Origin: a virus
Lineage: Duplodnaviria > Caudoviricetes
Strand: one strand, 5' to 3'
DNA length: 54,902 bases
Virus record (IMG/VR): IMGVR_UViG_3300030372_004573
Location: 1-54,902 of that record
The notes below the pieces were generated by a model that ran no database searches, had not been told where the DNA came from, and worked only from the letters and a program-made list of their open reading frames with translations. The position numbers and the translations under genes were made by a program. Positions 24,301-48,735 of the stretch are shown here, piece by piece. How positions within the stretch are numbered: the first letter of the stretch is position 1; every line of letters begins with the position of its first letter.

Positions 24301-27300
24301 TATAGAATTATTTGATACTACTGAGAGAATCATAAGAAATCCTTATGACCGTGATGCACGAAGAGCTGAGTATTCTGCTAACTTTATTGTGCCGATAGCT
24401 AATGATTTAGTCACCAACATAGAGAGTATTTTAAATACTGTAATTGATTATAGAAATCCTAAAGGTGAAGAATCAGCTATGGTTCCAATAGCTAAGTTTT
24501 TGTTGGAGACAATATCTGACGACATGTTGAGGTGGAGAGTTTTCCATGATCCTAAATTAACACAGCTAAAAGACCCTGATAACAGAAGTTACTCTTCTCC
24601 AGATCCTGATGTAGGTATTATGCTCGATACTGGTTCTGCGATGGTAGTACCTAAAGATTTCCCCCAAGCTAAAAAGTATACCCGTAATACTAAATATATT
24701 ACAACTCCTACATGGATTAAAAATAAATTTAATACACCTATAGATGCTATCACAAAATGGAAAGGGACAATCGATGGCTTAGATGCTCTAGTAGAGGGCC
24801 AGAGGTACTTGCCATCAGAAGATAGTTTTAATTATGTTCCCCCAATAGATGATTTCGGTGACTATAATAATCTGTCCCGCAAGCGTAAAAATGTTTTAGA
24901 AGATTATTTAAGATATCATATTGATAAGTATGAAGTAGGGGAAACTATATTTGATTCTGAAGGAGGCACAGACCTTGACGAAATATCAACGTATACTGAT
25001 ATTAACTTAAAGGATAGACCTGATTTAGAAAAGTACATATCTTGGGATTATTTCTTTAAGTTTTTAGGTGACAATTCATTTTATAAAACTAAGGAGGGTA
25101 AACACTGGTTAAGACCAAGACCTGATCCTTCAGGTGCTAAAGTATCTTATAAAGTAAGGGGGGTATCCCCCTCTACTATTATACATGAAATTTTCCATGC
25201 CTTAACTCAACGTGAAATTGATAGATATGTAATAAATACTAGAGCAAAAGGACTTAAATTATATAATGCGTATAAGAAAAAAGCTTCAGACATTTCAGTG
25301 CCTGAACCTTTACGAGAGCTGCTTAGAGTTTATTTAAAAGCCGTTGATTATGGAGATGAATATCTAGAGTTAAGAGAGAAGAAAGGAACTATAGTTAAAC
25401 CCACAAAGTCGTCGAGGCACATCTCAAAGATGATGAACTCAGGATATAAACGTGGGGCCGATAAAGCATCAGAAAGACAATTTTATGGATTAGCAAATCT
25501 TGATGAATTTGTTACTATGTCTATGATGAGTCCTGAATTTCAGATATGGCTTATGTCTATACCTGATCTTGAAGCTGCTCAAAATGGAGAAGCAAGAAGT
25601 TTGTGGGATAAGTTTACTGAGATAGTAACAAACATAGTAAATCATTTAAGGAAAGATCCAGACTTTGTACGAGATAGAGAAGTAGAAGGTGGTGCAAATC
25701 TCTTCAAGTCGGCTATCAAGTCCGTTATGGAAGTAGCCGCTTTGAATGGGAACGTAAATCGAAACTTAGCGAACATGGGATATGACTCGGTAAGTAAATG
25801 GAAAACTATTAAGGGAGCTAATGCAGGTAAGGCAGAAGCTGAGGCCTTACGTAAGGGCAGAGACGAAAGCTTTATAGAAGAACACGGGCTTAACTTGCCT
25901 CCTGTTACTAGAGAAATTCTTAGTGGAGTCTACAAGTATAATCCAGAAGAAGCGTCGGGTACTCAGAACCCTGCTACTGTGGCTACTTACAAAAATTTAT
26001 TCCCTTATATAGAAGATAAAGCATTTTCAAAAAGGTTAACAGAGTTCATGGCTAAATACGATGTTGTGGACTGGGGTTCTGGAATGGGCAGGGGCACTAA
26101 TAAGCTTAAAGAAGAATTAAAAATTTCCATTGCTGATGGTTATATAACCCAAATAAGAAAAGGACAAGTAAATATAGAATCTTACGAGCCTTACTTTGTT
26201 GAAGGCAAAGGAAACTTCCCTCCCAGCTTAAAAAGAAAACCAAGAAAAGAATCTCAAGATCTTATTATTAGTAGTCAAGTTATCAACGTACTACCCGCAG
26301 ATGAAAGAGCAGAATTGTTGGAAGATATTTATGCAAGTTTAAGAGAAGAGGGCCAAGCTATAATAACTACTCGTTCAGTGGGGCAAGTTCGAGATGGTAT
26401 TAAAGAAGAAAGAAGAAAATTAATAGGGCCCGCTGAATACATTTCTTCTGTAGATGGTAAGGCAACTACTTTCCAAAAAGGGTTTGATAAGAAGAGTTTA
26501 AAAAAGTTTATTGAAGAAGTTTTACCAGAAGCAGTTGTAACCACAACGGGTCTAAAGATTAGCCCAGTATACGCAATCATTACAAAACCAATAGGCGCAG
26601 GGCTTGAGTTAGATTCTGAACCTGACATCCAATCAACAAAGGTTACTTCTAAAACTCAACCTTTAAAAGGTTCTTTAGATCAAGCGTTTATAATTATGCT
26701 GAATCCTGAGGGAGGTGTTCTAAATGATGTTAAGGAAATGCAAAACCAAATAGCTAATTATGGTTTGGGAATGATTCCGTTAGCTGAAGAAGATCTTCAT
26801 TTTACTATGGTGGGGAGTGCATTCAATGAACAAGTATCTATCAACAAAAATATAAAACCTGATTTTGATATTACTTTAGGGCCTCCTCAGTATGCTGTGG
26901 AAATTAAGCCTAAAGAGAATGCATTAGGGATGGAGATTAAACGGTCTGTGTTTGCCAGAGTAATTGAGCAGGATAAGTTCAAGGAGTACACTGATAAAGT
27001 TATTGGTAGGAAATCTCCAGACACCGATAGAGATTATCACATTACTCTTGCTACGGCTACAGGAGGCCCCAGAAGTGCTGTAGCATACCCCAACAAAAAC
27101 GCATCCTTGTTCTTTGAACAAGGCCCTCGAACACAATTTTCTTATAGTAAGTACGAAGCAGGGCCTGAAAAGATGAGGATACTGGACACGCCCGCTAGTG
27201 AAGCCGCAGGAGAGGCACAGGAAAAATTAGAAAAGCTGAGGGAAAATGAAATGTTTTGGAATACTGCTGCTTTAAGAGGTGACCGTAGACTGAACTCGGC

Positions 27301-30300
27301 TGACCAAGCATTCCCCCTAAGGGCTGGGCTTACCAGTGAAATGGGACTAAGCCTTCCTGAACGGAGGTTTTTGGAAGAAGTTCCTGACTTTGTTAAGAAC
27401 TATAAACAGGTACAAAAAGTTTTACAGAAAACAGTTAATGAAACTGGGGAGGTCAGCCGTGAGAATATGCCTATTATCCAGCCTCAGCAAATGCAAGCAT
27501 TCGCTTCATTTGTCTCAGAGCAAACAGGGTCTACTGTTAATCTTAAGCAAGAGCAAATTCCCGCTGCTTCTTTAAAGCCTTATCAGACTGAATTGTTTTT
27601 CCCTAAAACAGTTTGGTTCGCCCTTCAATATTTTAATAATTTAGAACTTGCTACAGAGGATCTTGTGAAAAGACCATTCTCTTTAATAAGTTCTGATAAC
27701 TATATTATTGACGGGAACCATAGATGGGGCCAGATAATGTTGATAAGTCCTAAATCTTCTATTGAGGGTACAAGGATAAATTTGCCTGTTGCAAAATTAC
27801 TTCCTCTTGCCCGAAAGTTTTCTGAGCTAGTAGGAAATGACAGGGCAACAGATAGAGGAGGGTCTGATCTTTCCCAGTTCACCAAAATAAAAGGAAACTC
27901 AGAGTCCTTTGAGGAAACACGAGCGGCTGAAAGAAGTGCTGCTGAAGAACAAGCTGAGTCTATTGCGTCTAAAGCAAAGCTTGCTACAAGCAAAAAACAG
28001 TTACTGTCTTTATTTGGGCCGAAAATGTACAAAGAACCTTTAGGTACGGTTGTGGTAAAAGAGACTATTCAAAATTCTTATGATGCTATCAAAGACTTAA
28101 AAGAAATAAATGAAGATCTTAAACCCGAAATTGAATACGGAAGCTGGGATCTTTCTAGGCCGCAAAGTATGGATAATCTACAACCGTGGTCGTGGGGTGA
28201 CCCTGTTATTAGAGAGGCTGATGACGGTAGAATGGGTGATGAAAAAGACACTTTCTTAGCACCACCTCCAGAGATTATAGAAGATGTTCTAGAGCAACTT
28301 AAAAAAGGAGAAGATATTAAAAATAGCCAGTACTTTTTTATAAGAGATAATGGCATAGGGATGACTCCTGAAATAATTACCTCTGCTTTCTTTACAATAG
28401 GAGGTACTTATAAAACAAACAAGAGACCTTCTGGAGGACTTGGTGTAGCTAAAATGCAAATGTTGAATTCAGCCGACGAGATTTATTTGCAGACTGTTCG
28501 TGATGGTTTGGAAAGCACTGTAAAAGTTGACAACGAAACTTTAATGGCTGAAGAAGGAGAAGGTGAAAACCCATTCTTCGACATAGTTACTAGAAAAACT
28601 GATGCTCCTTCTGGGACTCAAATATGGTTTAAATTTCCTCAAGAAATATATGATAAAAAAGTAGATTTAACAGAAAAATTTGCCGTAGGAAATCTTTTTG
28701 ATGAGTCTATTAGTATAGAAATGAATCATTTCAAGCCACCTTTCATGTTTGGTGGTGGCGATAAATCGACTTTTCAGACACAGAAAATGGATGACTTAGT
28801 TAACTATGATTTTGCATTACATAGATTAAGTACTCCCCAAGCAAACGTAGATGTTTATGTTCATAAAATAGGTCGATACGACAAAGCAGGTAAGAAGATT
28901 TCAAAGGCACTGTTGCCATGGGGACACCGACTAGATAACGGTTACTCTACTATATATTCTAACGGACTATATCAATTTGAAGATAGGTTAGTAAAAGAAA
29001 ACCCTAACGAAATTCTTGGGGATTCCATTCCTTTCCACTTTATAATAAACGTACGTCCTAAGACTCCTGCTGCGGATATAAACTACCCTTTCAATAACAC
29101 AAGAGAAGGGTGGTCTCCGAATTGGGGCGGAAAAGGGGATAAAAGTTTTTATGGGGAGCTTCACCCAATAGACGAGGAAGTCACACGTTTGCAAATGAAA
29201 TACAGGGACGACTACAATCAACAAAGGTTTGTCCAAGAGTTTGACATAAACAAAGGTATTGATGGCAAACCTCCTACACCAATGGTTCCTGTTATTTACA
29301 ATAACATGGATTTTGATTTATCGGAGCAGGAACAAAATTTCATGACCGACTTTTCTAAAGTTGTTTTTTACGTAGCTGATCAATACTTAGCGTTATGTAA
29401 AGAAGCCAATGCTGAGGGGCTATACCCAATGAATCACAGCGATTTGGAAAATTCAGTATTAAATTCCGAAAAAACTTTAGAGAATAGCAAAGACCCAGAT
29501 GTTGTTTCCTATCATTATGGGTCAGCATTATCTAAAAATTGGGGAGGTGTTCAAACTAACATAGCTCCCCGAATGATTTTAGTTAATCCTGTTTATCATG
29601 ATCCAATGTTTAACAACGATGGTTCTTTAAGTGGGTATATAACTACTAAAGGAGCAGCCGCTGTTTTGGAAGATATAATAAGGCATGAAGTAAATCATGT
29701 AAGTAATAAAAAAGAAGGCGCTAATTTCACTTATGGTTTTTCAATTCAAAAATTAAAGTATGAAGCTGTTGAAAAAATAAAAGAAAATGCTATCAATGTA
29801 ATAGAAAATATAATAATAAATAATTATGAAACCTTCAAAGGACTTAGACAAAAATTTGTTAAGGGAAGCACTAAGTTTCTTAACGCAGAAATTCAAGGAA
29901 ACAAATTCGTTAGAACATTCGATGATTTTAACGATGCATCTAGCGGAAAAATACGGAGCGAAAGGGAGATCGTTGAACAAAACTTTGGGGAAGGCGTTAG
30001 ACCTCAAGACATCCAAGTCACCGATGGAAATATTTCACTCATTGAAGCAGTTAGCCGAAGAACCTTCCGACACGACGTAGACTTCGACCCCCCTTCATCA
30101 GACAATGTACAGGATACACGGATCGGGGTACAGCCTACAACGGACTGGACACTGTACGCAGGTAAACAAGTTGGCGGTTTATATATTTCTTCGGAAGCTA
30201 TAGAAAATGGTTACTCTGTTTTAAGCAAACCTGCTAATCAAGAAAAGAAGAAGAGGTTTGAAGAGGCTAAAGTTAGGCTTGAAACATATCTAGAGGAAGA

Positions 30301-33300
30301 AAGAATACAGGCGGAACTAAATGGGGAAGTATATGTACCCTTCAGTTATGACGTTGTATCTATCGAGAAGGATCAAGTCAGGTTCGTACTTATGAGCGAC
30401 CTTACTGAGGCACACCCACACGTAGTAGAGTCACTCAGAGTACCCATCGACACAGAACAACCTGTACAAGAAGGACGAACAGGCAACGCTATCTATCATA
30501 GGATGGAGCAAGTCTTAGGGTTCAAACATCCTTTGTATCAGTATCACAAAACAATTACTGATCTTGAGGAAGCACTTGGATTGTTAAACCTAAAAGATGA
30601 TAGCGGGAAGAAAGTATTTCCGAGTGGGTCAGAAAGAGTTTGGAAGCAACAAGTAGAATCTACTGGATACAGATATGATTCTCTGAAAGAAGAACACCGC
30701 AAGATAAAAGAAAAATTCTTTGGTGATCCTCAAGATACACTTATCGGTCAGGAAGATATAACACAAACTCCTGAGTACATAGAAAGCTCAGAAGCTTGGG
30801 ACACTTTAATAGATATACTCCGTGCTGATATAAAAATTACAGAGGAAGATCCCGACGATATAGCTGGGCCAATACCTAACCCTGTTAAATTTTTACAGAG
30901 GAAAGTATATGGTAAAGATGCTGAAATGGGTTGGAGAAAAGGGGGTAAGTTATGGTCTTTATTCTATGGCCCTTATGAAAGGACACTAAGGAAGTACTTG
31001 AACAAGTCTGACTTCTTTAGGAAAGCAATCCAAGATGTGGTTCTTTCTTATAAGTCTACTACTGACAGGTTACTTAAAGAAACATACACCAAAAACGGAT
31101 TGGACATTCCGTCTCGGACAATCTTTGAAGCTACGGGTACCACTCAGTTTGCACCTTCAGAAGAAGTAGCACAAAGTATTCAGGATAATTATCTTAACAG
31201 AGTTGACGAAATAAATAAAGATTCTTCTCTAGAAGGTGATGAAAAGAAGGAAGCATTACTCGAAGCATACAACGCACGAGAGGCGGCTAAACAACAGGCC
31301 TCCCAAGACGTACTAAAAAGTGCTAGAAAACGTAAGAGTGAAGCTCTTGAAATAATAAGAAAAGATTCACCTGAGTTAGCTAAACATATTATTTCTTTAA
31401 GAAAACTAGCAGATAGTGTTTCGTCAGAGATAGGTAATATGATTTCATTAGCCGCTCCTAATTTGCAGTTAAGGATAGATGAAAGACTAGACATTTACTT
31501 AACAACTCAGTACAGGGCTTTTACCAGACCAAACTGGACAGAAGAATTTTTAGAGTTAGAAATGCATAGAACTGCAAGAGATCTATCATTGAATTATTTT
31601 GCAGATGAATATGTAAAGACACAAACAGAATATCTTGTAAGAGAAGGGGGTCTAGATAAAGAAACGGCTATAAAACAAGCACAACAAAACTTAGAAGATA
31701 AACCAGAGCTAAAGATGATGGCTCTTGAAAATTTCTTAAAATCCTATGATAAAGATTTTGGTGTAGATAGCTTAAAGAAAAAAGGTAACTTGCCAGCAGC
31801 TTTAAGGGGTGCTCTAGGAGAGTTTAGTGAAGAGACAAACATGGATGTTCTTTACAGAACTTTACTTAACTTAGGGACTTTAGTTTCCAAGATGTCCCTG
31901 AAAGACAAGCTTGTTAGCCAAGGTATTAAATCAGGGTGGCTTGTAACTCAAGAGAAAGCAGCACTTGAAAGGAAGAGAGCAGAGGAAGCAGGTAGGCCTG
32001 ACCCCTACGAAGATTATGTTGAGGTAGTTAAATCAAAAGACTCTTCAATATCAGAACAACTTGCAGGATCTTTAGATGATACAGGCGTAAAGATAACAGG
32101 AGAAAACTTTGAAGTTAAGTTAAACCCCGATGGTACTGTTAAAGAAGCACCAAGATCTAAACCACCGAGCTCTGATCCTTTAATTAATTACAGAGTTAAA
32201 ACAGAGGACGGATCAGTAGAAAAGAAAGGCAATTTATTAGCAAGGCCTGACGTTAAGCAAGCAATCTTACAAGTGCTCAACCCAAAACAAGGGATGACTA
32301 CTCCAGATAATGAGTATGTGCAGATTGCACTTAAACTTTTCGGGGGTATCGAAAAGAGTGTAGCGGGATTAACTGGTTTAGGTATGCTATCTAAAACATT
32401 GGGTTCAATACCATTTTACGAAAGACAAATATTAGGTTCGTTCCTTTTCTTATCCCAGAATGGAATACCAATATCAGGATACGTCCCTGAGTTAAAAAAC
32501 GAAATTGGTAGGTCTGTACTTCCTTCAGGAGTATTTAAAAAGAGAAGTTACTTAGAAGGAAGGTCTGCTGACAGAGGCGATATGGTTTACTACGCAAGTC
32601 TTAAATCTATGGGGGTTCTCGATGAAGGTATAGTTTATTCTGTTCTTAAGGATTTACTTTCAGGAAATATATCAAAAGAAGATGTTGAGTTAGAAATAGA
32701 CCACCTTAAACACCCAACAGAATCTATTTTAAAGAAAAGTAAACTGTTCCCTGAAGGGAGCACATCAGAGAAAGCTTTACAAAAAGCGGCTGCCCTCTTA
32801 AAAGGAGCAGGTAAAGTTAAAGATATTCCAATAGGTAAGGCCCAAGCTTTAGCTTTAGCATTAGATAATGCTATCAAAGTACAGGCATATGAGTATGAAA
32901 GATCTTGGTTGCTAGATGCTAGAGAGGACTCACAATCCGCAGAAAGAAATGATGAGTACAGAAATCTAAGCAGTGCTGAACTTGATGAGATGGCGGCACA
33001 GATAGTTCTTAGAACACAGCAATCGAGAAGCCAAAGTGCACCTATCGTTGAGTTCTTCAACCTACCTGTTATTAGAATAGTTACTGCTCCGTTCGCTCGA
33101 TTCTTGGCTGAGAACCCACGATTATTGGTAAACATCATGAGGCAGTCTTCTGCCGAAATGAACAGTTCTAATCCTGTTATAAAGGAACGGGGCTCTCAAA
33201 GGAATAAAGGTTTCTTATTTACTAACTTTGTTTTATACATGGCATTACCAATGTTCCTACAAAGATTTGTAGCAGGTTTAAGTGATGACGAAGAAAGAGT

Positions 33301-34231
33301 ATTAAGAAAGTCAGCCCCTGAGTTTTCTAGATTCCAAAACTTATTCTACCTTAAAAACCCAGAAGGTGAGATAGGAACAGTGAGCTTGAGTTATGTTCAT
33401 CCTATGTCTCCTATCCTTGACTTTGCGATGAGAGGATTTGAGCACACCATGAGGGGTGACATAAAAGAAGCTGTTAAAACAGTAACCATAGGTTATTTAA
33501 CAGATACTTTTTTAAATGATCAGATCTTCTGGTCTGCTATACAAGACGTTAAGAATAATACCGACAGAAATACAGGGCAGCCTATTGTAGGGGAATACAC
33601 TCCTGACGCTTTAAAAATACAACTCAGTTACATTTTTGAAAAAGGATTAGCTCCCCCAACTTTATTAGCTGCTTCTAAAGCAGTCGAAGCTATAGGTACT
33701 GATTATCCAAAAGGTGAGGAAGCCCGTACATTTTTAGGGCAACCCATATATAGCCCTCAGGGGCAAGTCCTCAGGCATTTAATGCCAGTGAAGTTTTATC
33801 CCCTTCAGTTAGAATCTATGGCTCGAAGAAGGTTCAGAGAGATCTATGATAATTTGTACATTGACGCAAAAAATAAAAATAAGTTAAGAAGATTATCAGA
33901 AGGGTTTGATCCTGAAAAAATTGATAAACTACTAAGATCAGAGTTTAAATCTTTAAGCTCAGGACTAAAAGATGCGAGGCTCGCTTACAATGTTTACAAT
34001 GATTTGTTAATGGATGAGGGATTGGTGCAGGAAATAATGAAAGGATCTCGTTTTAAAGGTTCTTTAATAGATGTTGTAGCCAGAGGATACCTTAGCGGAG
34101 AAGATCTTTTAGCTGAGGGGGAGTCCGTGATAGACAAACTCCAAGAACAAGGAGCGAGTGAACGTGCCTCCCAATTATATGAAGCTTACTTAAATATAAT
34201 AAAAGAAAATCAATTTATTGAACTAGATTAA
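15332..34231 (+). CDS. Giant (6299 aa) polyvalent internal-virion protein with several enzymatic domains
   Basis: Ala/Gly-rich ejection-type N-terminus. Zincin motifs EELIH (20534), HEIFH...YGLANLDEF (25184) and HEVNH (29684). HhH-glycosylase-like WY..SPQ..W..N..HKVRSFY..VTMDTH. SAM-MTase DWGSGMG..SQVINV..FQKGF. 2H motifs HFT/HIT. ParB-like IIDGNHRW. GHKL motifs ETIQNSYDA/DNGIGM/GGLGVAK. Helical LPD38-like C-terminus. Confidence 0.85.
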   Translation: MSENFKQKESLAFGSVTEHNTFEIDPLLKNENDEPVEPVNQLAKFAQNRIISGIAQGENVYKKLNAELENSYKRALELNPDIGSYGDWQNIVLPNTVDPKKELSLFEKLDQGLVETDGVLVQEFKKFTDDPSYVSPELAEAQDKFNNLKRIAIGTSRSEEQDPESSTSLPFVSVKDEEGQDIVLTQNAEQLTTEHDSLEKALRVSLDSGALKPRDLLAVASNLKFAEGTGKTYSDLQREYELTFKVVGFTNEILNQAQQVKERTGDSPRLYHFKGDSDLVKSLNALTLDIRLDHQELTNTTDTVDPEKRYLYEKLPAFARFALLAGTAQWEGIKSKYRDFFPKPDPLNFGVPLTPLEEPLNHALENLSEDDINFSKDKSAIAERFREKFQITNLSDDQVIESVKRALHTQLHSSGLLPYIIDEKSLFLNIKKEENFGITVHPDLFVNRKAFEKAVKQHPDLTKKDIEVVKEKRKLFYASQARELEDLIFSSAPTTKKWLEAKEKNFKLKAEDQKDLATILEEFLSDDENFSYLSDNLRSFGFSAVSSVPMIYHSVVGALGSESSTNKAIEIQLRKDEGKQLSSAFGRGGFFLDVSNVAGDLVIDLGATALSGVPANSAAKKLALEIAGKKLAAQGYKISKIKGTTNALHAAFFSTDTASKKKLAAQLLTAGTITPLKTKKYTEGIVKVLADDFAALSLSNTEKLTDLGALAFSVGAPSGLRSASYAYSSYMQALPDNLSFDEKRKRAVPLAIARGALTAAITVGASYLGRGGAEAVVAKRPSKLMELRGYKATKNALENLAKMSRATDKVGKGLLVSEVAEIAAAIARNGLRRSMLFGLGAKTVLTDLAKVGIDEGIEEGLDEFLGSFVDEYATGNNITLGERLGSTAYAGLLGLTMGVGVSGTAKVIGAASSKLGIGDTTKSTENVYRQLVDMVMEEASTLNEAASNARNAQAPLTAEVLEQNREQLLAGVAKNPVASAAVFRMSVTRDTNISEERESSEIVTVNAEDVTGVSETTNEKGETIFAVEYSPVDASGEVLTAFTKNASVTRLDVRVRENYKIEQEIIQQIEEEVLIPNVEDQNEALRTAEGIEAATNNFIKKHKVALKNNNISILIDPTEEQQQGFIDTVQGNQEYQILQGAESSVKINEEGTVFIIINTANTSEVTNSIPKQRRTTYMQSVFTEALASSFELVSIRDKYFGLEPENRGDLSLEQFINLDRLAVYEEMSQYERDWASSLILGEEVTEGLSEKVSNSSLIAATHINSLLQLDMSGQVKGVQKTAWAGKSRGGALSKNVKQKLFDILSYLRAAIRTARDSSSRAFLRNHVNFISDNLTKPFFDAVSNLSEAQQAQAIDEASQQDGEILNQKVNPIEDSPILGNVPQVSLETVPKEIKGKKESAKPSIFPEGEVGDLNFDDVEQPSESDTVIGRNAEGDLIVFQSMTLAEAEVYLSNLEKLKGNFIEQTTPVKIFISPNSTPNTDSNTQIILQTKVNSQAFSLNSVQGSPDTPSLRQAIIENPLFSKGMVENSLDGSNVVYKIEEDPDNPSSFNLYAFPKVLRFTRELTPSDIDAINTNTAAGVDPKKLSQGTALEIAKKLFDKTIQVPSNPSFSEEASAEIDINTELSSETASEDYIEPVQQTSVDGTGLDTQDPPKAKNKQREKRKKQAKKIYASLQRRLLREGTRFFEGVRESGAAAWYDRSKMAVGINPEVLYDILVDENNLAAAKAILNLAVDEELIHQISWETLSYKERQQAINELLNADRRGANALIRMVQEYNTEIQNYTPEETIQILRLGLPETDSLPAGIEDTPTNRALKDEIADYVFEELIRKHVSLVNGRGATEPDYDFLRGKDKEGKSTKKVGVLDVYKKYIENFFIGRLRAKKALRKDSKLGPYYATAVAKVAQEFKAAKEGFRRRPDYDKLDLDIDLGVYSKQSTLIGTEISTVAPEEEQREEWLSEIDPEQVKASVVKGRTVGTRSPSAKGKLGEGADPNKVVTLKDLRENPEAYKKNALILLNYPVVAREFQDDPLLEKVRKAKAPVNKAELKKQQLRQDIKSAKDRLKSDLVTYKANERSDELKPQRKQEADSLKKKYSDSQNAVKEIEREVNKLNNSLKRANKRLRETISKENKKINALIKRARSAGNETVLKELQQRKVDVKNILSNDGKTAELIEGINSSLIEARQRLATIKKLSKSNKSAFEKALKEFSKPTVNKNSIKLSASQVVTTVEQFVTDIEEGTPVRVGAKALIVKLNAINKKEKELKSAIQDAKTKTTKFGDVLKRLSKSEKAFPINTADEIYASLNDVAQQNLGMLIKLFPQDLRVYASLWYDGANIIANKFAKTFDISVEQAAAVLAVFSPQKDWYMNVSLAERTMHIFKARQAALFDGSMVSNFLRRAGEPELKYDKNGNPFYEGDAVPVYDEDGNHTTDENGVLQFDNWGSEKAKDKFELSKQVLNLGLAGKRFNEIEDISFPHKGKQKKFSKEALQARFIRMFSEAAENEALRDPKTFNVIRPDGAILERPSLSEKGAPRSIAWGSYSTIEKAIKILNADQDNSIDVISNELGLMHKVRSFYNNISDPSSRAGHVTMDTHAVAALLLKPVSGNSIEVTQNFGGQGTASDSNLGISGLYPAFAEAYRSVSFLNDTTKEEYLVREIQSITWEAVRMLFPSKWKSNKNNVRAIEELHAKYEKGIISLEQLQEQIYSFVQTSQAKGMPADEALSVTEGIQSANTVRGLGVGRPDWGQAAPVSVEAPPSEQEQFTSIRWRNLETRHADLASRDISEKQGIFKEEIAELFREASRKAEEKIPDYFSYEEPAGLLMYTDLTEEKYIYKNPKGSALDRDANLKDYKQFILTPANKYMFSPNMTPREAVLALGLKEYLIITDGTSNLEPDKVIIHVSNGTTRPYNQTGAGVEVVKSFYGEEVEVIFEAEKTDLMKAMLDPDQALKAQLERNLKKTNRFLYDRRGKLIPLSVRFAPFSEVKYEPQDVEDPIELFDTTERIIRNPYDRDARRAEYSANFIVPIANDLVTNIESILNTVIDYRNPKGEESAMVPIAKFLLETISDDMLRWRVFHDPKLTQLKDPDNRSYSSPDPDVGIMLDTGSAMVVPKDFPQAKKYTRNTKYITTPTWIKNKFNTPIDAITKWKGTIDGLDALVEGQRYLPSEDSFNYVPPIDDFGDYNNLSRKRKNVLEDYLRYHIDKYEVGETIFDSEGGTDLDEISTYTDINLKDRPDLEKYISWDYFFKFLGDNSFYKTKEGKHWLRPRPDPSGAKVSYKVRGVSPSTIIHEIFHALTQREIDRYVINTRAKGLKLYNAYKKKASDISVPEPLRELLRVYLKAVDYGDEYLELREKKGTIVKPTKSSRHISKMMNSGYKRGADKASERQFYGLANLDEFVTMSMMSPEFQIWLMSIPDLEAAQNGEARSLWDKFTEIVTNIVNHLRKDPDFVRDREVEGGANLFKSAIKSVMEVAALNGNVNRNLANMGYDSVSKWKTIKGANAGKAEAEALRKGRDESFIEEHGLNLPPVTREILSGVYKYNPEEASGTQNPATVATYKNLFPYIEDKAFSKRLTEFMAKYDVVDWGSGMGRGTNKLKEELKISIADGYITQIRKGQVNIESYEPYFVEGKGNFPPSLKRKPRKESQDLIISSQVINVLPADERAELLEDIYASLREEGQAIITTRSVGQVRDGIKEERRKLIGPAEYISSVDGKATTFQKGFDKKSLKKFIEEVLPEAVVTTTGLKISPVYAIITKPIGAGLELDSEPDIQSTKVTSKTQPLKGSLDQAFIIMLNPEGGVLNDVKEMQNQIANYGLGMIPLAEEDLHFTMVGSAFNEQVSINKNIKPDFDITLGPPQYAVEIKPKENALGMEIKRSVFARVIEQDKFKEYTDKVIGRKSPDTDRDYHITLATATGGPRSAVAYPNKNASLFFEQGPRTQFSYSKYEAGPEKMRILDTPASEAAGEAQEKLEKLRENEMFWNTAALRGDRRLNSADQAFPLRAGLTSEMGLSLPERRFLEEVPDFVKNYKQVQKVLQKTVNETGEVSRENMPIIQPQQMQAFASFVSEQTGSTVNLKQEQIPAASLKPYQTELFFPKTVWFALQYFNNLELATEDLVKRPFSLISSDNYIIDGNHRWGQIMLISPKSSIEGTRINLPVAKLLPLARKFSELVGNDRATDRGGSDLSQFTKIKGNSESFEETRAAERSAAEEQAESIASKAKLATSKKQLLSLFGPKMYKEPLGTVVVKETIQNSYDAIKDLKEINEDLKPEIEYGSWDLSRPQSMDNLQPWSWGDPVIREADDGRMGDEKDTFLAPPPEIIEDVLEQLKKGEDIKNSQYFFIRDNGIGMTPEIITSAFFTIGGTYKTNKRPSGGLGVAKMQMLNSADEIYLQTVRDGLESTVKVDNETLMAEEGEGENPFFDIVTRKTDAPSGTQIWFKFPQEIYDKKVDLTEKFAVGNLFDESISIEMNHFKPPFMFGGGDKSTFQTQKMDDLVNYDFALHRLSTPQANVDVYVHKIGRYDKAGKKISKALLPWGHRLDNGYSTIYSNGLYQFEDRLVKENPNEILGDSIPFHFIINVRPKTPAADINYPFNNTREGWSPNWGGKGDKSFYGELHPIDEEVTRLQMKYRDDYNQQRFVQEFDINKGIDGKPPTPMVPVIYNNMDFDLSEQEQNFMTDFSKVVFYVADQYLALCKEANAEGLYPMNHSDLENSVLNSEKTLENSKDPDVVSYHYGSALSKNWGGVQTNIAPRMILVNPVYHDPMFNNDGSLSGYITTKGAAAVLEDIIRHEVNHVSNKKEGANFTYGFSIQKLKYEAVEKIKENAINVIENIIINNYETFKGLRQKFVKGSTKFLNAEIQGNKFVRTFDDFNDASSGKIRSEREIVEQNFGEGVRPQDIQVTDGNISLIEAVSRRTFRHDVDFDPPSSDNVQDTRIGVQPTTDWTLYAGKQVGGLYISSEAIENGYSVLSKPANQEKKKRFEEAKVRLETYLEEERIQAELNGEVYVPFSYDVVSIEKDQVRFVLMSDLTEAHPHVVESLRVPIDTEQPVQEGRTGNAIYHRMEQVLGFKHPLYQYHKTITDLEEALGLLNLKDDSGKKVFPSGSERVWKQQVESTGYRYDSLKEEHRKIKEKFFGDPQDTLIGQEDITQTPEYIESSEAWDTLIDILRADIKITEEDPDDIAGPIPNPVKFLQRKVYGKDAEMGWRKGGKLWSLFYGPYERTLRKYLNKSDFFRKAIQDVVLSYKSTTDRLLKETYTKNGLDIPSRTIFEATGTTQFAPSEEVAQSIQDNYLNRVDEINKDSSLEGDEKKEALLEAYNAREAAKQQASQDVLKSARKRKSEALEIIRKDSPELAKHIISLRKLADSVSSEIGNMISLAAPNLQLRIDERLDIYLTTQYRAFTRPNWTEEFLELEMHRTARDLSLNYFADEYVKTQTEYLVREGGLDKETAIKQAQQNLEDKPELKMMALENFLKSYDKDFGVDSLKKKGNLPAALRGALGEFSEETNMDVLYRTLLNLGTLVSKMSLKDKLVSQGIKSGWLVTQEKAALERKRAEEAGRPDPYEDYVEVVKSKDSSISEQLAGSLDDTGVKITGENFEVKLNPDGTVKEAPRSKPPSSDPLINYRVKTEDGSVEKKGNLLARPDVKQAILQVLNPKQGMTTPDNEYVQIALKLFGGIEKSVAGLTGLGMLSKTLGSIPFYERQILGSFLFLSQNGIPISGYVPELKNEIGRSVLPSGVFKKRSYLEGRSADRGDMVYYASLKSMGVLDEGIVYSVLKDLLSGNISKEDVELEIDHLKHPTESILKKSKLFPEGSTSEKALQKAAALLKGAGKVKDIPIGKAQALALALDNAIKVQAYEYERSWLLDAREDSQSAERNDEYRNLSSAELDEMAAQIVLRTQQSRSQSAPIVEFFNLPVIRIVTAPFARFLAENPRLLVNIMRQSSAEMNSSNPVIKERGSQRNKGFLFTNFVLYMALPMFLQRFVAGLSDDEERVLRKSAPEFSRFQNLFYLKNPEGEIGTVSLSYVHPMSPILDFAMRGFEHTMRGDIKEAVKTVTIGYLTDTFLNDQIFWSAIQDVKNNTDRNTGQPIVGEYTPDALKIQLSYIFEKGLAPPTLLAASKAVEAIGTDYPKGEEARTFLGQPIYSPQGQVLRHLMPVKFYPLQLESMARRRFREIYDNLYIDAKNKNKLRRLSEGFDPEKIDKLLRSEFKSLSSGLKDARLAYNVYNDLLMDEGLVQEIMKGSRFKGSLIDVVARGYLSGEDLLAEGESVIDKLQEQGASERASQLYEAYLNIIKENQFIELD

Positions 34232-34381: not shown

Positions 34382-34660
34382 CTACAATTCGTCGTCAATA
34401 TTATTTGAATTATTTTTAGGCTCTCGCAGAACCATCTCATAAAAACTAGTTATAGCAGCAGTTTTATTAGGCCCTTTATACAAAACTACATCGAATTTAG
34501 ATTCAACATTTGGTATATATGAGTGGGCTACTACTGCGTACTCGTCTTCTCCTGAGCCTGTCTGAGCATACATACATATGCTTTCATAAGGCCCCTGTTC
34601 AGGTTTCTCTAGCTTTAATAGTACTTCCCTGACTACGTTAGGTTTTGTTGCTGCTTGCAT
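34382..34660 (-). CDS. Hypothetical protein
   Basis: 92-aa ORF, last gene of the - strand unit. Confidence 0.6.
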   Translation of the reverse strand: MQAATKPNVVREVLLKLEKPEQGPYESICMYAQTGSGEDEYAVVAHSYIPNVESKFDVVLYKGPNKTAAITSFYEMVLREPKNNSNNIDDEL

Positions 34661-44993: not shown

Positions 44994-45191
44994 ATGAAAA
45001 GAATAGCATTAATAATAAGTGTCATTCCATTATTACTCTGTGGTGTTTCTTGTAGTACATTAAACACTGGAGCAGGTATTAACGTACCCTTTACAGATAA
45101 TGGTAGTGGAGAACCTGTGAAAGTCTCTTTAGAGGTTAACGCAAAAGTTCTCCCTCCTAAATTCTGCATAGGTTTAGATATAAAGGAATAG
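44994..45191 (+). CDS. Small lipoprotein
   Basis: MKRIALIISVIPLLLCGVS-C signal peptide with lipobox. ATG at 44994 follows an A-rich leader. Confidence 0.65.
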   Translation: MKRIALIISVIPLLLCGVSCSTLNTGAGINVPFTDNGSGEPVKVSLEVNAKVLPPKFCIGLDIKE

Positions 45192-45193
45192 AT

Positions 45194-45406
45194 ATGCCCT
45201 CCCCAGACTGGGAGCAACTGTATAGAGAGAAATCTTTAGACCTTATCCGTTGCAGGATAAGGTGCTCTCTGTACAGGGAGGGAGTGGAAAAAACTTTATA
45301 CCACTTAAAAAAATGGGGTTATAGCCCTCACGATTCTTTAAAATCGCAACATCTAGCCGAGGACGGGGTGTGGGAGCGTATTGAAAACAAGAGATTGTCT
45401 CAATGA
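45194..45406 (+). CDS. Hypothetical protein
   Basis: 70-aa ORF starting 2 nt after the previous stop. Confidence 0.5.
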   Translation: MPSPDWEQLYREKSLDLIRCRIRCSLYREGVEKTLYHLKKWGYSPHDSLKSQHLAEDGVWERIENKRLSQ

Positions 45407-45428
45407 AAAATTAGTATATATTTAAGGC

Positions 45429-45734
45429 ATGGCTGAATTAAAAGGAGCAAAAAGAGTTTTAAAGCAAGCACTAAAGAATGCTAAAAATAAAAAACGGACA
45501 GGTAAAAAAATCCGTAAGTACGAAAAGTCTGAGCAATTTCGGGGGCCAAGAGATCCACGGTCTATGAAGGTTAAGAAGAAAAATTTACCAGAAGAGATGG
45601 GTGGAAAACTAAAGTTCCAAAAAGTACCTGAAATAGATGCGGTTGAAGCAATGGGCAAAAGTAAACAAATAGACCCTAAAAAGAGGGCACCTGTGCGTAG
45701 AAAATTAAGAGCAGATGACCCTGATGTAGATTAA
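45429..45734 (+). CDS. Lys-rich basic protein
   Basis: Composition. Preceded by TTGTCT-16-TATATT. Confidence 0.65.
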   Translation: MAELKGAKRVLKQALKNAKNKKRTGKKIRKYEKSEQFRGPRDPRSMKVKKKNLPEEMGGKLKFQKVPEIDAVEAMGKSKQIDPKKRAPVRRKLRADDPDVD

Positions 45735-45735
45735 G

Positions 45736-46044
45736 ATGGCGGGAAAGTTTAAAAGACTACCCTCTGGAAAAATAAAATATAGAGGAGAAACCTTTGCAGG
45801 TTTTAATAAAGCCAAGGGAACACCATCACACCCCAAAAAAAGCCATATTGTTTTAGCTAAAGAAGGAGAAAAAGTAAAAGTCATTAGGTTTGGTCAAAAA
45901 GGAGCTAGTACAGCAGGTAAACCAAAAGCAGGTGAATCACGTAGAATGAAGATGAAACGTAAATCTTTTAAAGCAAGACACGGAAAGAATATTAAAAAAG
46001 GAAAAATGTCAGCAGCCTACTGGGCTAACAAAGTAAAATGGTAA
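45736..46044 (+). CDS. Conserved basic phage protein
   Basis: Signature KSH.VLAK...IRFGQ.G...RKSFKARH...SAAYWA.KVKW, recalled as widespread in aquatic phages. Confidence 0.8.
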   Translation: MAGKFKRLPSGKIKYRGETFAGFNKAKGTPSHPKKSHIVLAKEGEKVKVIRFGQKGASTAGKPKAGESRRMKMKRKSFKARHGKNIKKGKMSAAYWANKVKW

Positions 46045-46045
46045 A

Positions 46046-46237
46046 ATGAGTTTATACGAAAACATACACAAAAAAAGAAAACGAATAAAAGCTGGAAGTG
46101 GAGAGAAGATGAGGAAGCCTAACTCTAAAGGAGCTCCTTCAGCACAAGATTTTAAAGATGCGGCAAAGACAGCTAAGTATACAAAAGGACAAAAGAAAGA
46201 GTTGAAAACAGCAAGTCGTAAATCAAGAATGTCATGA
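46046..46237 (+). CDS. Conserved small basic phage protein
   Basis: Signature LYENIHKKRKRIKAGSGEKMRKP.SKGAP...FK.AAKTAK. Confidence 0.8.
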   Translation: MSLYENIHKKRKRIKAGSGEKMRKPNSKGAPSAQDFKDAAKTAKYTKGQKKELKTASRKSRMS

Positions 46238-46290
46238 AATATAATAAACCAAAAAAACCAAAGCCTAAGCCTAAGCCAAAGCCATATTAA
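46234..46290 (+). CDS. 18-aa KP-repeat microprotein (MKYNKPKKPKPKPKPKPY)
   Basis: ATGA overlap with the upstream stop and next ATG 1 nt after its stop, so it exactly fills the gap. Confidence 0.6.
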   Translation: MKYNKPKKPKPKPKPKPY

Positions 46291-46291
46291 G

Positions 46292-46486
46292 ATGAAAAAA
46301 GGAGAAGAAGATTTCAAACCTCATTTAATGTTTGAACCTAAAACAGGTAAAAGCATGATGGCTGATTCTCATGAAGAGCATCTTATTTTTAAAAAATTAG
46401 GTTTAGTTCACGAAGACGAACTAGACATGGAGGGAAAAGACCCTTCCTTTCAACAGGCTGTCGAAAGCGCACTCGCTTCTTCGTAG
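46292..46486 (+). CDS. Small protein with a scaffold-like C-terminal motif
   Basis: FKPHLMFEPKTGK...A.SHEEHL...LG..H domain plus C-terminal SFQQAVESAL. Confidence 0.7.
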   Translation: MKKGEEDFKPHLMFEPKTGKSMMADSHEEHLIFKKLGLVHEDELDMEGKDPSFQQAVESALASS

Positions 46487-46491
46487 GTTGG

Positions 46492-46507
46492 TGTTCCATG
46501 TGGAACA
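46492..46507. promoter_or_regulatory. parS-like palindrome
   Basis: TGTTCCATGTGGAACA matches the parS variant TGTTCCACGTGGAACA at 15/16 positions. Intergenic. Confidence 0.55.
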
Positions 46508-46521
46508 TTTAAAATAGTAGT

Positions 46522-46550
46522 TTGCATACCTTAATATTTAAGGTTAAGTT
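46522..46550 (+). promoter_or_regulatory. Capsid promoter with a palindromic 17-bp spacer
   Basis: TTGCAT-ACCTTAATATTTAAGGT-TAAGTT. Confidence 0.6.
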
Positions 46551-46561
46551 TCTGATGTCTA

Positions 46562-46699
46562 AGGTCGGTTGCTCTAGCCATTAATTAGTTCAGACCTAAA
46601 ACACACTAAGAATTTTGCGGTTGCTCTAGCCTTAAATAGTTCTAGTCAAGATTCAATTAACTTTGAAATAGACCACAATCCATCGATATGGAGTGGTCT
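46562..46699 (+). ncRNA. Candidate structured 5' leader RNA of the capsid gene (tandem motif plus hairpin)
   Basis: Two CGGTTGCTCTAGCC-(5-6 nt)-TAGTTC units enclosed by different outer stems, then an AGACCAC/GTGGTCT hairpin. Confidence 0.5.
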
Positions 46700-46701
46700 G
46701 C

Positions 46702-46726
46702 CTTAACTTAACTTAACTTAACTTAA
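46702..46726 (+). repeat. (CTTAA)x5 microsatellite before the capsid start
   Basis: Directly visible in the sequence. Confidence 0.95.
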
Positions 46727-46743
46727 ATTTAGAAACAAATAAA

Positions 46744-48096
46744 ATGGGCGCAGATTTTATAGCACCAAATACATTCGAGACCGATGCGGGAGCAGCTATT
46801 GATGCCGTATTGACTCAAGAAGCCAATAGAATTGGCGGAGACATCCATAAGGCAACTCTCCACACTTCACCGTGGATAGACCTTATTAAACAATCTACAT
46901 TTCCTGAGGGAATGGGATATCAACTAAGCACACTCATTTATGATCGTGCGCTTCCTTTACAAGCAGAGGGTATTCATCTTCATGACACCATTGCTGGAAT
47001 TGGAGCCAACTGGAGAGCGATGGGCACAACCCACGGCACTGCCCTTAATGGTAATACTGCGGGACAGCTTGATCAACTTGGAGACGTTGCTGCTGGAAAA
47101 TTTTCTGGATCAGGAGATGCTTCAGGAGATGTTAACTTAATTGACTTCACTAAGACTCTCAAGAACTACAGCCTAGAAAGAGCTATCGTTGAATCACCAC
47201 GTATTAATGTGGAAGAACTTCGTTACGCTGCTCACCGTACAGAACAGCTTCGTGCCATTATGGATCTCCTTAAAGAGGCCACCCGTAATGTTTGGGAAGG
47301 CCGTTATCGTGATGAGTATGGTAAGATGTGTGATAACATCGTTTACGCTAAGACTGCTTCATCTTCCACCCAAACAGGTATAGAAGGAACAGCCCTTAAT
47401 GCCATCGATGTAGACACTGGTGATGGGTCTGATGACTCCTCTCTTGATGTTACAGCAAACATCTCTAACAAGCTTCTTGATGATATTTACTTCAAGCTTG
47501 TAAGAGCGGGTGCGGGATCTAATGCATATGGCCGTGAAAATGGTCGTCCTGTATTCTCTGTTGTTTGCTCATCAGAAGCATCTTATCAGTTGATGACTGA
47601 AGCTGGATTCCGTGACGATGTACGTTACAACAACGCTAAAGTTTCTGACCTTATTGCTCCATTAGGAGTTGAGAAGAGCTTTAGAGGTTTCTACCACTTG
47701 ATAGATGACCTTGCACCACGTTTCACATTTAGTGGAAGTACAACTCTAACTGAAGTACAGCCATATAAAGCTCAAAGTGCTAGTGGTGGTGACAGTAACA
47801 AAGTTATTGTTAATACTGCTTATGATACTGCTGACTATGAGGCTGCCTTTGTTCTTGTTGATAACGTAATGGAGTCTTTGATTCCTGCACCTATCACTAA
47901 TGCTAACGGGTTATCATTTAACCCTGTTAACTATAAGGGCGACTTTAAGTGGACTAACATCCCTGATGTTAGCTTGAATCCTGATGGAACCATTGGTTTC
48001 TTCAGAGGTATTCTTGCTTCTGCGTCTAAGCCGATTAAGACTAACTTTGGTTATATTATTCTGTTCAAGCGTACAAGCACTACACCTGCTGCTTAA
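46744..48096 (+). CDS. Major capsid protein
   Basis: 450 aa, downstream of portal and scaffold. Own promoter, long structured leader, downstream hairpin, and a G.F.W.N...NPDGTIGFFRG C-terminal pattern. Confidence 0.8.
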   Translation: MGADFIAPNTFETDAGAAIDAVLTQEANRIGGDIHKATLHTSPWIDLIKQSTFPEGMGYQLSTLIYDRALPLQAEGIHLHDTIAGIGANWRAMGTTHGTALNGNTAGQLDQLGDVAAGKFSGSGDASGDVNLIDFTKTLKNYSLERAIVESPRINVEELRYAAHRTEQLRAIMDLLKEATRNVWEGRYRDEYGKMCDNIVYAKTASSSTQTGIEGTALNAIDVDTGDGSDDSSLDVTANISNKLLDDIYFKLVRAGAGSNAYGRENGRPVFSVVCSSEASYQLMTEAGFRDDVRYNNAKVSDLIAPLGVEKSFRGFYHLIDDLAPRFTFSGSTTLTEVQPYKAQSASGGDSNKVIVNTAYDTADYEAAFVLVDNVMESLIPAPITNANGLSFNPVNYKGDFKWTNIPDVSLNPDGTIGFFRGILASASKPIKTNFGYIILFKRTSTTPAA

Positions 48097-48103
48097 TTCT
48101 AAA

Positions 48104-48131
48104 GTGGGGTTCCCGTAAAAAGGAACCCCAC
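48104..48131 (+). terminator. Strong hairpin after the capsid gene (weak terminator or mRNA stabiliser)
   Basis: GTGGGGTTCC/GGAACCCCAC 10-bp stem with no clean U tract. Confidence 0.55.
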
Positions 48132-48159
48132 ATAATATTAATTTTAATTATTAAAAATT

Positions 48160-48735
48160 ATGCCAACTTTAGATGATACAACAACGCTACAAAAGAATGT
48201 AGCAATCGCAGCTAATGATGCTTTAACGATTGCCAACAAAGATTCAGCTGCATCAAGTCAGATACAACAAATACCTGCGGCTCTTGCGGTTGAGGGGTTT
48301 ACTCACGCTTGGGTGGTAAACTACGACAATGCAACACTAGCTGCTGATAGCTCAGGGGCTTGCGCTTTAAGTCTTTATACCTTTGCTGCAAATCAAATAG
48401 TAACTAAAGCTAGATTATTAGTAACGGAAGCATTCACTAACAGTGCTACCATGAACACTTGCCCGATTGATGTAGGACAGAGTGGGGACTCTGGCGATGA
48501 CGACATTATTGACGCTTGTGCTGGACACACTATTGGGTTTGAAGAAAACTCAGGGGGTTCTTTAACAGGAGACAATGAAGCTCAAAATTTCACGCCCACG
48601 GCCTCTGGAACTCTTGAGCTTACATTTACTCCAAGCGATAGTGCCACTTGTAACAACTTTACTGCGGGCCAAGTAGTTCTTTTAATGGCTATTACTACTA
48701 TAGCTGATTATAAAGACATTGTTCCTGCTACGTAA
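48160..48735 (+). CDS. Putative capsid decoration/cement protein
   Basis: Beta-rich, small-residue-rich protein (V.EAF...IDVG..D.D..ID...TAG.V) directly after the capsid gene. Confidence 0.6.
   Translation: MPTLDDTTTLQKNVAIAANDALTIANKDSAASSQIQQIPAALAVEGFTHAWVVNYDNATLAADSSGACALSLYTFAANQIVTKARLLVTEAFTNSATMNTCPIDVGQSGDSGDDDIIDACAGHTIGFEENSGGSLTGDNEAQNFTPTASGTLELTFTPSDSATCNNFTAGQVVLLMAITTIADYKDIVPAT

Follow-up and report, generated by a model that had tools for sequence, protein, structure and literature searches.

The window analysed here, a virus record of 54,902 nucleotides (nt) from IMG/VR (IMGVR_UViG_3300030372_004573) that is rated 91% complete, contains a non-coding gap of 257 nt (46487-46743) between an open reading frame (ORF) of 64 amino acids (aa; 46292-46486) and an ORF of 450 aa (46744-48096), which is the probable gene of the major capsid protein. 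The initial annotation had described a capsid leader of about 190 nt with two conserved cores within unrelated closing stems, followed by a hairpin of 12 base pairs (bp) and by (CTTAA)5. Repeats, outer stems, hairpin and (CTTAA)5 were all found just where they had been placed, and the leader length agrees with the predicted transcribed part of about 187 nt, but not with the gap as a whole. The tandem of conserved cores is upheld by covariation: the leader is a structured sense-strand RNA with tandem pseudoknots, linked to the probable capsid gene, and that it serves some function as a structured RNA can be regarded as highly probable. The two copies of the motif are composed as follows.

46562-46597, plus strand: unit 1, the first copy of the tandem motif
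46562-46566 (AGGTC) with 46593-46597 (GACCT), plus strand: closing stem P1 of unit 1
46567-46569 (GGT) with 46577-46579 (GCC), plus strand: stem S1 of unit 1, with the loop TGCTCTA at 46570-46576
46574-46576 (CTA) with 46586-46588 (TAG), plus strand: predicted pseudoknot helix S2 of unit 1, with the linker L3 (ATTAAT) at 46580-46585
46589-46591 (TTC), plus strand: invariant trinucleotide of unit 1, followed by a 1-nt connector, A46592
46610-46654, plus strand: unit 2, the second copy of the tandem motif
46610-46617 (GAATTTTG) with 46647-46654 (CAAGATTC), plus strand: closing stem P1 of unit 2, with one G.U pair
46619-46621 (GGT) with 46629-46631 (GCC), plus strand: stem S1 of unit 2
46626-46628 (CTA) with 46637-46639 (TAG), plus strand: predicted pseudoknot helix S2 of unit 2, with the linker L3 (TTAAA) at 46632-46636
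46640-46642 (TTC), plus strand: the same trinucleotide in unit 2, followed by the connector TAGT at 46643-46646

The sequence CGGTTGCTCTAGCC is found at 46566-46579 and again at 46618-46631, with TAGTTC 6 nt further on in the first case (46586-46591) and 5 nt further on in the second (46637-46642), and a repeat search of the window returned a direct repeat of 20 nt with 90% identity and 52-nt spacing. When the window was searched for the 13-mer GGTTGCTCTAGCC with up to two mismatches, the exact copies were the two unit sites, and a third match at 34602 had two mismatches and fell in a region read as minus-strand coding, with 0.89 such matches expected by chance. A profile model built from 143 units and used with its filters off likewise recovered only the two window sites, at 47.9 and 34.1 bits, all other matches having E values of 0.86 or higher; the model carries S1 only, and just six units had one common geometry of P1 and S1.

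The motif is not confined to this record. A search with the capsid protein yielded 38 related IMG/VR loci of 52-82% identity (loci are cited by L numbers where needed), and in 32 of the 39 sequences formed by these loci and the window, a distance of 197-335 nt separates the start codon from the end of the closest upstream ORF of 40 aa or more. Two units are present in 36 of the 38 relatives, in leaders that are otherwise too diverged for alignment, and L017 and L020 had no unit by this first search pattern. In IMG/VR, 87 stretches match the motif pattern exactly, and in all 79 of them that could be tested, the gene directly downstream on the same strand is a homolog of ORF 46744-48096; the other eight end 64-330 nt past the motif. 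Among metagenome contigs, at least 116 stretches carry the motif; of the matches listed, 100 of 106 testable loci are linked to the capsid gene and 10 are untestable, and the six unlinked ones are single copies without closing stems that look like chance, two of them representing the same coincidence in a Methylophaga coding sequence. A scan of 185,579 species genomes with the motif pattern gave 15 stretches. Two copies were seen there in five short contigs of 3-29 kb (L129, L131, L132, L133, and L139) from four metagenome-assembled genomes (MAGs), which are labelled Acidimicrobiaceae, Opitutae (two contigs), Blastopirellula, and Verrucomicrobiales and had been binned to unrelated phyla. These five contigs are probably phage sequences mis-binned with bacteria, and they are therefore unreliable as host evidence. 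The matches in five Methylophaga records and in one Gammaproteobacteria MAG with an identical flank were rejected as a coincidental match that runs antisense to the first part of a parvulin-type isomerase gene, and those in Wolbachia, Desulfobacterales, Amphibacillus, and Kitasatospora as single copies within open frames. The motif belongs to this phage lineage and to the capsid-homolog gene, and the lineage is a large group of uncultured aquatic phages of oceans and lakes; a blastn search of 46200-47200 against 50,697 GenBank phage records gave no match, and neither a cultured relative nor a host was found.

Within this family, the spacing from unit to unit varies between 52 and 90 nt. Relatives with 70-90 nt between the units (e.g. 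L001, L005, L009, and L014) have an extra small hairpin there that is not present in the window and that, by eye, consists of a purine-rich 3-bp stem with a C-UNNG-N-type loop. In L151-L178 and L192-L194, of the L020 clade, a conserved module replaces unit 2. The outer GAA...UUC is kept in it, and a GUCGC/GCGAC hairpin has GCUUC in its loop, to which an upstream GAAGC is complementary, both words being invariant. This second module of the L020 clade may be a derived unit with a different pseudoknot.

Each unit of about 45-50 nt consists of a sequence-variable P1 around a near-invariant core. As read from sequence comparison, the core contains a 3-bp GGU/GCC stem that closes a 7-nt loop, of which C8-U9-A10 pair with U1'-A2'-G3' of the downstream UAGUUC; the resulting S2 helix spans the A/U-rich linker and generates a compact pseudoknot between hairpin loop and 3' bulge. 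The initial annotation had drawn an inner GGUUG/UAGCC hairpin in each core. Its lower three pairs hold (G1-C13, G2-C12, and U3.G11, with variants that give U-A and C-G at the third pair), but its upper two pairs, which compete with the S2 pairing of C8-U9-A10 to U1'-A2'-G3', are contradicted by variants, and therefore the pseudoknot fits better.

The S2 pairing covaries. In 143 aligned units, pair 10-1' is AU in 130, GC in 11, and GU in two, pair 9-2' is UA in 142 and CG in one, and changes on both sides of S2 were counted in 16 cells, as against 1.2 in shuffles (0 of 500). An IMG/VR-wide scan at 10-1' found A/U in 87 stretches and G/C in nine, with none for either A/C or G/U; seven of the nine G10/C1' stretches are capsid leaders, and the remaining two, L146 and L149, were set aside as lying in unrelated contexts. 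The G-C pair arose several times, in both units of the L018 group and of L148, in unit 1 of L044, in unit 2 of L066, and, in L150, in unit 2 alone, where A-U is found in the close relative L089. As the changed pair is matched within one unit, S2 pairing must be assigned to the individual units and not to contacts between them, and a kissing interaction of the two units is ruled out by the observation that both changes fall in one unit when only one is altered. A second protein search that started from L020 provided 45 more loci in which the first unit is diverged yet recognisable and the linker carries hairpin insertions capped by GNRA-type loops; L185, found by the same search, was placed outside the L020 clade in the tree. 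In these loci, pairs 8-3'/9-2'/10-1' occur as CCG/CGG, CCA/UGG, UCG/CGA, UUG/CAA, and, with one wobble, UUA/UGA, and L185 has the combinations CUC/GAG and CUU/AAG. Pair 10-1' shows all four Watson-Crick types, and all three S2 pairs covary in nine pairing-compatible combinations, eight of which are fully Watson-Crick.

A unit pattern that demands no complementarity gave the same picture. A looser form run over whole loci had returned mostly coding-sequence noise, and the pattern was therefore rerun on leaders only, where it identified 169 distinct units in 178 leaders. Standard pairs are formed at 10-1' in 167 of these units, at 9-2' in 168, and at 8-3' in 166, and all three pairs are standard in 21 of 25 core types (shuffled mean 8.9, maximum 15; 0 of 2000), with the rival hairpin pair 4-10 holding in just 17 of the 25. 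Three of the four exceptional core types look like false positives of the pattern, and the real one is CUC/UAG (L027 and L073); A10 is deleted in L059, L064, and L125, a form that this pattern cannot match. The invariant positions are G1 G2, G5 C6 U7, C12 C13, and U4' U5' C6', usually followed by UA. About 16 positions of the core are near-invariant, in contrast to the freely drifting stems. A possible G5-C6' pairing has one wobble-compatible change as support.

The evidence for the closing stem and for the sense strand comes from the flanks of the core. In 132 units with distinct flanks, 95 different 8-mers adjoin the core, and the native 5' and 3' flanks pair with a mean of -9.2 kcal/mol, compared to -4.1 kcal/mol when flanks are swapped between units (n=2608; Mann-Whitney p=5e-62); -6 kcal/mol or lower is reached by 93% of the native and 21% of the swapped pairs. 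P1 has a median length of eight pairs, every pair type is seen at each stem position, and 131 of 1183 P1 pairs (11%) are G.U. The minus-strand reading of the same flanks is weaker (-8.1 kcal/mol; Wilcoxon p=2.6e-5). RNAalifold assigned no pairs, either in the 143-unit alignment or in an alignment of the third leader hairpin described below, because variable spacers shift the stems out of register, and flank swapping and counts of named structures were used instead. In unit 2 of relatives, the outer GAA/TTC pairs and the following A(C) recur, as judged by eye.

These data bear on the idea that the motif is a pair of DNA operators for a transcription factor at the capsid promoter, to which the initial annotation would have turned if covariation were lacking. 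Covariation is strong in both the closing stems and the loop-to-3' pairing. Two identical 13-mers just downstream of a promoter-like site are what one would expect of operators, but covariation of flanks is meaningless for duplex DNA, the G.U pairs would turn into mismatches if the opposite strand were read, pairing is better on the plus than on the minus strand, the loop-to-3' pairing is preserved by compensatory change, and the 13-mer is a poor DNA palindrome whose two sites lie at distances of 52-90 nt. An operator pair is therefore hardly credible.

Downstream of the two units, the leader contains a further hairpin and the translation initiation region.

46670-46699, plus strand: hairpin 3, AGACCAC-AA-TCCAT-CGAT-ATGGA-GTGGTCT, 7+5 bp, present in the minimum-energy fold
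46702-46743, plus strand: G-poor initiation region lacking a Shine-Dalgarno (SD) sequence, with (CTTAA)x5 at 46702-46726, then ATTTAGAAACAAATAAA, directly before the ATG

Many relatives share the 3' strand of hairpin 3, GGAGYGGUCU. The outer stem of this hairpin is 88.7% paired in 19 relatives, compared to at most 40.6% with a slid partner, and its covariation in the same set is not significant (52 of 500 shuffles reach it), the changes being mostly one-sided and of the G.U type. By eye, the L018 group lacks this hairpin. That the start codon lies in an open, G-poor, SD-less region with UUAAC-type repeats is fairly safe: G makes up 7.3% of the 40 nt that precede the start codon in 73 distinct leaders, as against 21.5% further upstream, a GGAG-type SD occurs in none of the 73, and AACTT or TTAAC is found in 43 of them (shuffle mean 9.0, maximum 17). 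The (CTTAA)5 that had been noted in the window is part of this common region and represents a local expansion of the AACTT/TTAAC word, with five copies in the window and in L024 and four in L003, and with one RNA-library contig being 5 nt shorter. Judged from 35 ORF starts, most genes of the window have A/T-rich upstream regions without SD, and the trait therefore reflects the host and is not special to the capsid gene.

The region upstream of unit 1 contains the presumed start of the transcript.

46522-46549, plus strand: promoter-like site, TTGCAT at 46522-46527, a 16-nt spacer, and TTAAGT at 46544-46549
46557, plus strand: putative 5' end of the capsid mRNA, given by the end of an RNA-library contig

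The promoter-like site of the window is a weak consensus match that a generic promoter scan did not list, and it is positionally equivalent to TTGAC(A)-N16-18-TAnnnT in the relatives. A TTGAC(A)/TTGCAT-type hexamer, a spacer of 16-18 nt, and a TAnnnT-type hexamer are present in 85 of 88 non-redundant leaders, where the site ends 14-24 nt before G1 of unit 1; the other three leaders are mis-anchored or have no promoter-like site. Four RNA-library runs were compared with 45900-47900, two of which (X17 and X18) cover too little of the leader. Run X16 contains a 224-nt contig that corresponds to 46557-46778 with no differences and ends at 46557, which coincides with the start predicted about 7 nt past the second hexamer, and run X15, from another study, contains a 1161-nt contig of a relative of about 90% identity that ends at 46568. 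Depth at 46436-46502 is zero in all four runs, and no loose end at 46557 or 46568 is found among the loose ends listed for them. The contig ends give a weak hint at the start of the capsid mRNA, and the presence of the leader in contigs of two RNA libraries hints, just as weakly, that the region is transcribed, the lack of which the initial annotation had considered a point for DNA operators. It is fairly safe to say that a conserved promoter directs transcription from a point just a few nt ahead of P1 in unit 1, and the 5' end of the mRNA would therefore be buried in a stem.

The promoters themselves differ. Many relatives have near-consensus promoters of the TTGACA-N17-TAAGAT type, and since these are unlike the site in the window, more than one type of host may be represented in the lineage; in the window, the SD-less genes, together with the TTTG...TAAGTTTC words that precede the leader, are reminiscent of Bacteroidota-type expression signals. 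In L019, L022, L023, L025, and L034, a terminator-like G/C hairpin with a T-run was seen by eye about 60-90 nt before unit 1, and its loop contains the TTGACA hexamer of the promoter, so that terminator and capsid promoter overlap. In the L152-L169 group, a 14-bp inverted repeat, AGCTTCGTACAAAT / ATTTGTACGAAGCT, brackets the TTGACA of the capsid promoter about 100 nt before unit 1, again by eye, and could be an operator or a hairpin. In the window, an 8-bp hairpin with two G.U pairs (GGTGTTCC/GGAACATT, 46490-46509) lies directly 3' of the stop codon of the upstream ORF; it was not called by a terminator scan, and RNA depth is zero in its bin, 46436-46502.

Both the start position and the initiation region could be taken to indicate that the leader simply ensures constitutive high expression and has no regulator of its own, in that 5' stem and pseudoknots protect the mRNA from decay at its 5' end, and the open UUAAC-rich region recruits ribosomes, as in T7 gene 10. 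The capsid protein is more abundant in the virion than any other, bacterial mRNAs are stabilised by stem-loops at their 5' ends, and the predicted start lies only a few nt before P1, all of which would fit. A plain protective hairpin requires no conserved sequence, yet about 16 core positions are near-invariant, and the maintenance of a specific pseudoknot by compensatory change, together with the duplication of the core, argues for recognition. Native T7 gene 10, like the window, has a leader before a major capsid gene, but that leader is not known to contain conserved pseudoknot modules. The initiation region, with its AACTT/TTAAC words in so many leaders (43 of 73, mean 9 expected), resembles the T7 epsilon enhancer, whose sequence is given as UUAACUUUAA (PMC9590205). 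The window has UUAACUU four times before its start codon and not the exact epsilon 10-mer, and the T7-derived leader of a published construct has a strong SD beside epsilon (PMC9590205), which is found in 0 of 73 leaders here. We consider a purely constitutive leader possible, if unlikely, and it could be made compatible with recognition if the partner were a universal host component, for instance an RNase or the ribosome.

Two structured modules just after a promoter are also known from the put RNA of phage HK022, which acts in cis for antitermination via RNA polymerase. By analogy, the two units could modify RNA polymerase for readthrough of a long late operon: they follow directly on a conserved promoter, a plus-strand gene run of at least 8 kb extends from 46744 to the end of the window, and RNA polymerase as an invariant partner would explain the invariant core. 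The comparison with put concerns the position of the modules, the unit spacing varies in the family of the window, the L020 clade manages with one canonical unit, and a scan of 45000-48500 found no terminator-like plus-strand site just past the capsid gene. Antitermination is thus quite unlikely. The compact, repeated structure could also belong to a stable RNA that is released from the leader, e.g. by a cut within hairpin 3, and that acts in trans as a protein sponge or as a cofactor of assembly or packaging, in line with the assembly RNA suggested by the initial annotation, or to a self-cleaving ribozyme, and hairpin 3 is long and irregular and presumably of the general kind that is cut by double-strand RNases. 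The RNA-library contigs are continuous from 46557 or 46568 into the coding region and give no evidence of processing, and no Rfam ribozyme or known small RNA was matched, which makes a released RNA very unlikely.

The initial annotation could not assign the motif to a known family, and this is borne out by comparison with Rfam 15. The whole window had no match to any of the 4227 models at gathering threshold, 46300-46900 had only two chance-level matches at E values up to 10, both upstream in coding sequence, and the loci of nine diverse relatives had a single unrelated match at E values up to 1 (E=0.14), outside the leader. The motif is a well-supported RNA family that is absent from Rfam 15. 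A 2023 study reports 8495 novel structured-RNA candidates from IMG/VR intergenic regions, five of them upstream of the major capsid protein family PHA00201 (PMC10690425). Data source and kind of object are the same as here, and the capsid of the window has no named family; the leader motif may already be among these candidates, under a number.

In their architecture, the units bring to mind compact H-type pseudoknot aptamers such as preQ1-I: they are small, with two short helices, a linker rich in A and U, and bases in junction or loop that do not vary. The motif could be a new riboswitch class, in which the mini-pseudoknots would each bind a small molecule or ion as aptamers, and their duplication would sharpen the response that gates capsid synthesis. 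A metabolite, an ion, or an infection-state signal would then time capsid synthesis from an otherwise constitutive host-type promoter. The near-invariant core around covarying helices speaks for this idea, as does the tolerance of the linker for GNRA-capped insertions; core invariance across differing promoter types suggests an invariant ligand, and the connector of 1-2 nt in some units hints that P1 and S2 may alternate. On the other hand, the motif keeps to a single structural gene of a single phage lineage (79 of 79 testable IMG/VR stretches, and 100 of 106 testable loci among the metagenome matches listed) and is not found upstream of metabolic or transport genes, and cellular records contribute only the five contigs that look mis-binned or chance matches in coding sequence. 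The core is very small, and no expression platform is evident: the initiation region is G-poor and open, and no U-run comes after hairpin 3 in the window. Unlike preQ1-I-type aptamers, the pseudoknot of the window has an extra enclosing stem and a structural-gene context, and neither preQ1-I nor other pseudoknot riboswitches were matched in Rfam 15, the downstream gene being a capsid homolog and not one for ligand metabolism or transport. Guanidine-II (mini-ykkC) RNAs also consist of two small hairpins, with conserved tetraloops; they gave no Rfam 15 match in the window or the nine relatives, and they differ in that covariation is here confined to each unit, L044, L066, and L150 being changed in one unit only. 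We therefore regard a riboswitch as a minor possibility.

The interpretation that we favour, tentatively and with a probability of roughly 0.45, is that the two pseudoknots are docking sites for one conserved trans-acting macromolecule that sets the translation and/or stability of the capsid mRNA. It is suggested by the exclusive linkage to one structural gene, by two near-identical, variably spaced sites with invariant unpaired bases, and by the open initiation region that lies downstream of the units. The partner would most likely be a dimeric or bivalent protein. It could come from the phage, with the capsid and scaffold proteins themselves as possible candidates, or it could be a universal factor of the host, and its binding would set the translation and/or lifetime of the mRNA of the capsid gene or late operon. 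The bound factor may nucleate at the pseudoknots and from there influence the open initiation region, which it would occlude or expose, in the way gp32 acts on its own mRNA.

The T4 gene 32 operator is the closest documented architecture, and the likeness is one of layout, with no sequence likeness known. The T4 review describes a 5' pseudoknot followed by an unstructured A+U-rich tract of UUAA(A) repeats over the ribosome site, calls the gene 32 mRNA unusually stable, and considers this pseudoknot possibly the only viral one in translational autoregulation (PMC3014915). Set beside this operator, the leader of the window has covariation-supported pseudoknots and (CUUAA)x5, in a family of leaders whose initiation region holds 7.3% G; it differs in having two pseudoknots, each within a closing stem and 100-180 nt upstream, with a hairpin in between. 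Moreover, the downstream ORF weakly resembles an HK97-fold capsid protein and has no match to a family of single-stranded DNA-binding proteins.

Several points weigh against docking of such a partner. The scan of 29 window ORFs with Pfam found no RNA-binding domain, most ORFs having no match at all. The core is near-invariant across capsids down to 52% identity and in phages with different-looking promoters, and such constancy is explained at least as well by a partner that does not vary (the ribosome, RNA polymerase, or a small molecule) as by a phage protein that co-evolves. Tandem units are not universal: the unit-detecting pattern found none in three relatives (L017, L171, and L179), and the L020 clade has one canonical unit and a derived second module. 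With only A46592 between UUC and P1, unit 1 of the window may be unable to form P1 and a long S2 helix at the same time, which would suit a switch. Hairpin 3 sits between the pseudoknots and the initiation region and is a poor fit to simple spreading in the manner of gp32. Finally, the transcription evidence consists of assembled contigs, which do not prove a start, and an RNA library may contain some DNA.

Control of phage late genes is known mostly at the level of transcription, and well-supported RNA operators in phage leaders are few. The element described here has unusually clean comparative support, its small size suits it to direct biochemistry, and the gene that it precedes is the most strongly expressed one in an uncultured aquatic phage lineage that is abundant, with at least 1596 capsid homologs. 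The identity of the partner would show how such phages set their capsid output while relying on a host-type promoter, and the element could become the basis of a small RNA control module that is portable. As a sharp marker of the lineage, the motif also exposes mis-binned phage contigs in MAGs.

The gene that follows the leader itself has no named family.

46744-48096, plus strand: downstream gene of 450 aa, probable HK97-fold major capsid protein

The protein had no Pfam or PHROG match, a profile search against the PDB gave chance-level matches only (E=0.63), and tblastn against the 50,697 GenBank phage records gave none; in metagenomes, it has at least 1596 homologs, all unnamed. An AlphaFold model from 23 homologs is of low confidence (predicted local distance difference test, pLDDT, 54.3). 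With this model, the best Foldseek match was a cyanopodophage capsid (E=4.7e-3, probability 0.97, template modelling score, TM, 0.23-0.27), and phage capsid entries make up 32 of the 35 matches listed, all with weak scores. The assignment of ORF 46744-48096 as an HK97-fold major capsid protein is thus probable, not proven. Among its neighbours, only two small upstream ORFs matched in PHROG or Pfam searches, both to unnamed PHROGs. One is a 63-aa ORF at 46046-46237 on the plus strand that matches phrog_16028 (E=1.7e-22) and ends in a Lys-Pro repeat tail, for which repeated AAGCCT/AAACCA words at 46245-46285 code. Elsewhere in the window, a single plus-strand ORF of 6299 aa (15332-34231) takes up about one third of the genome.

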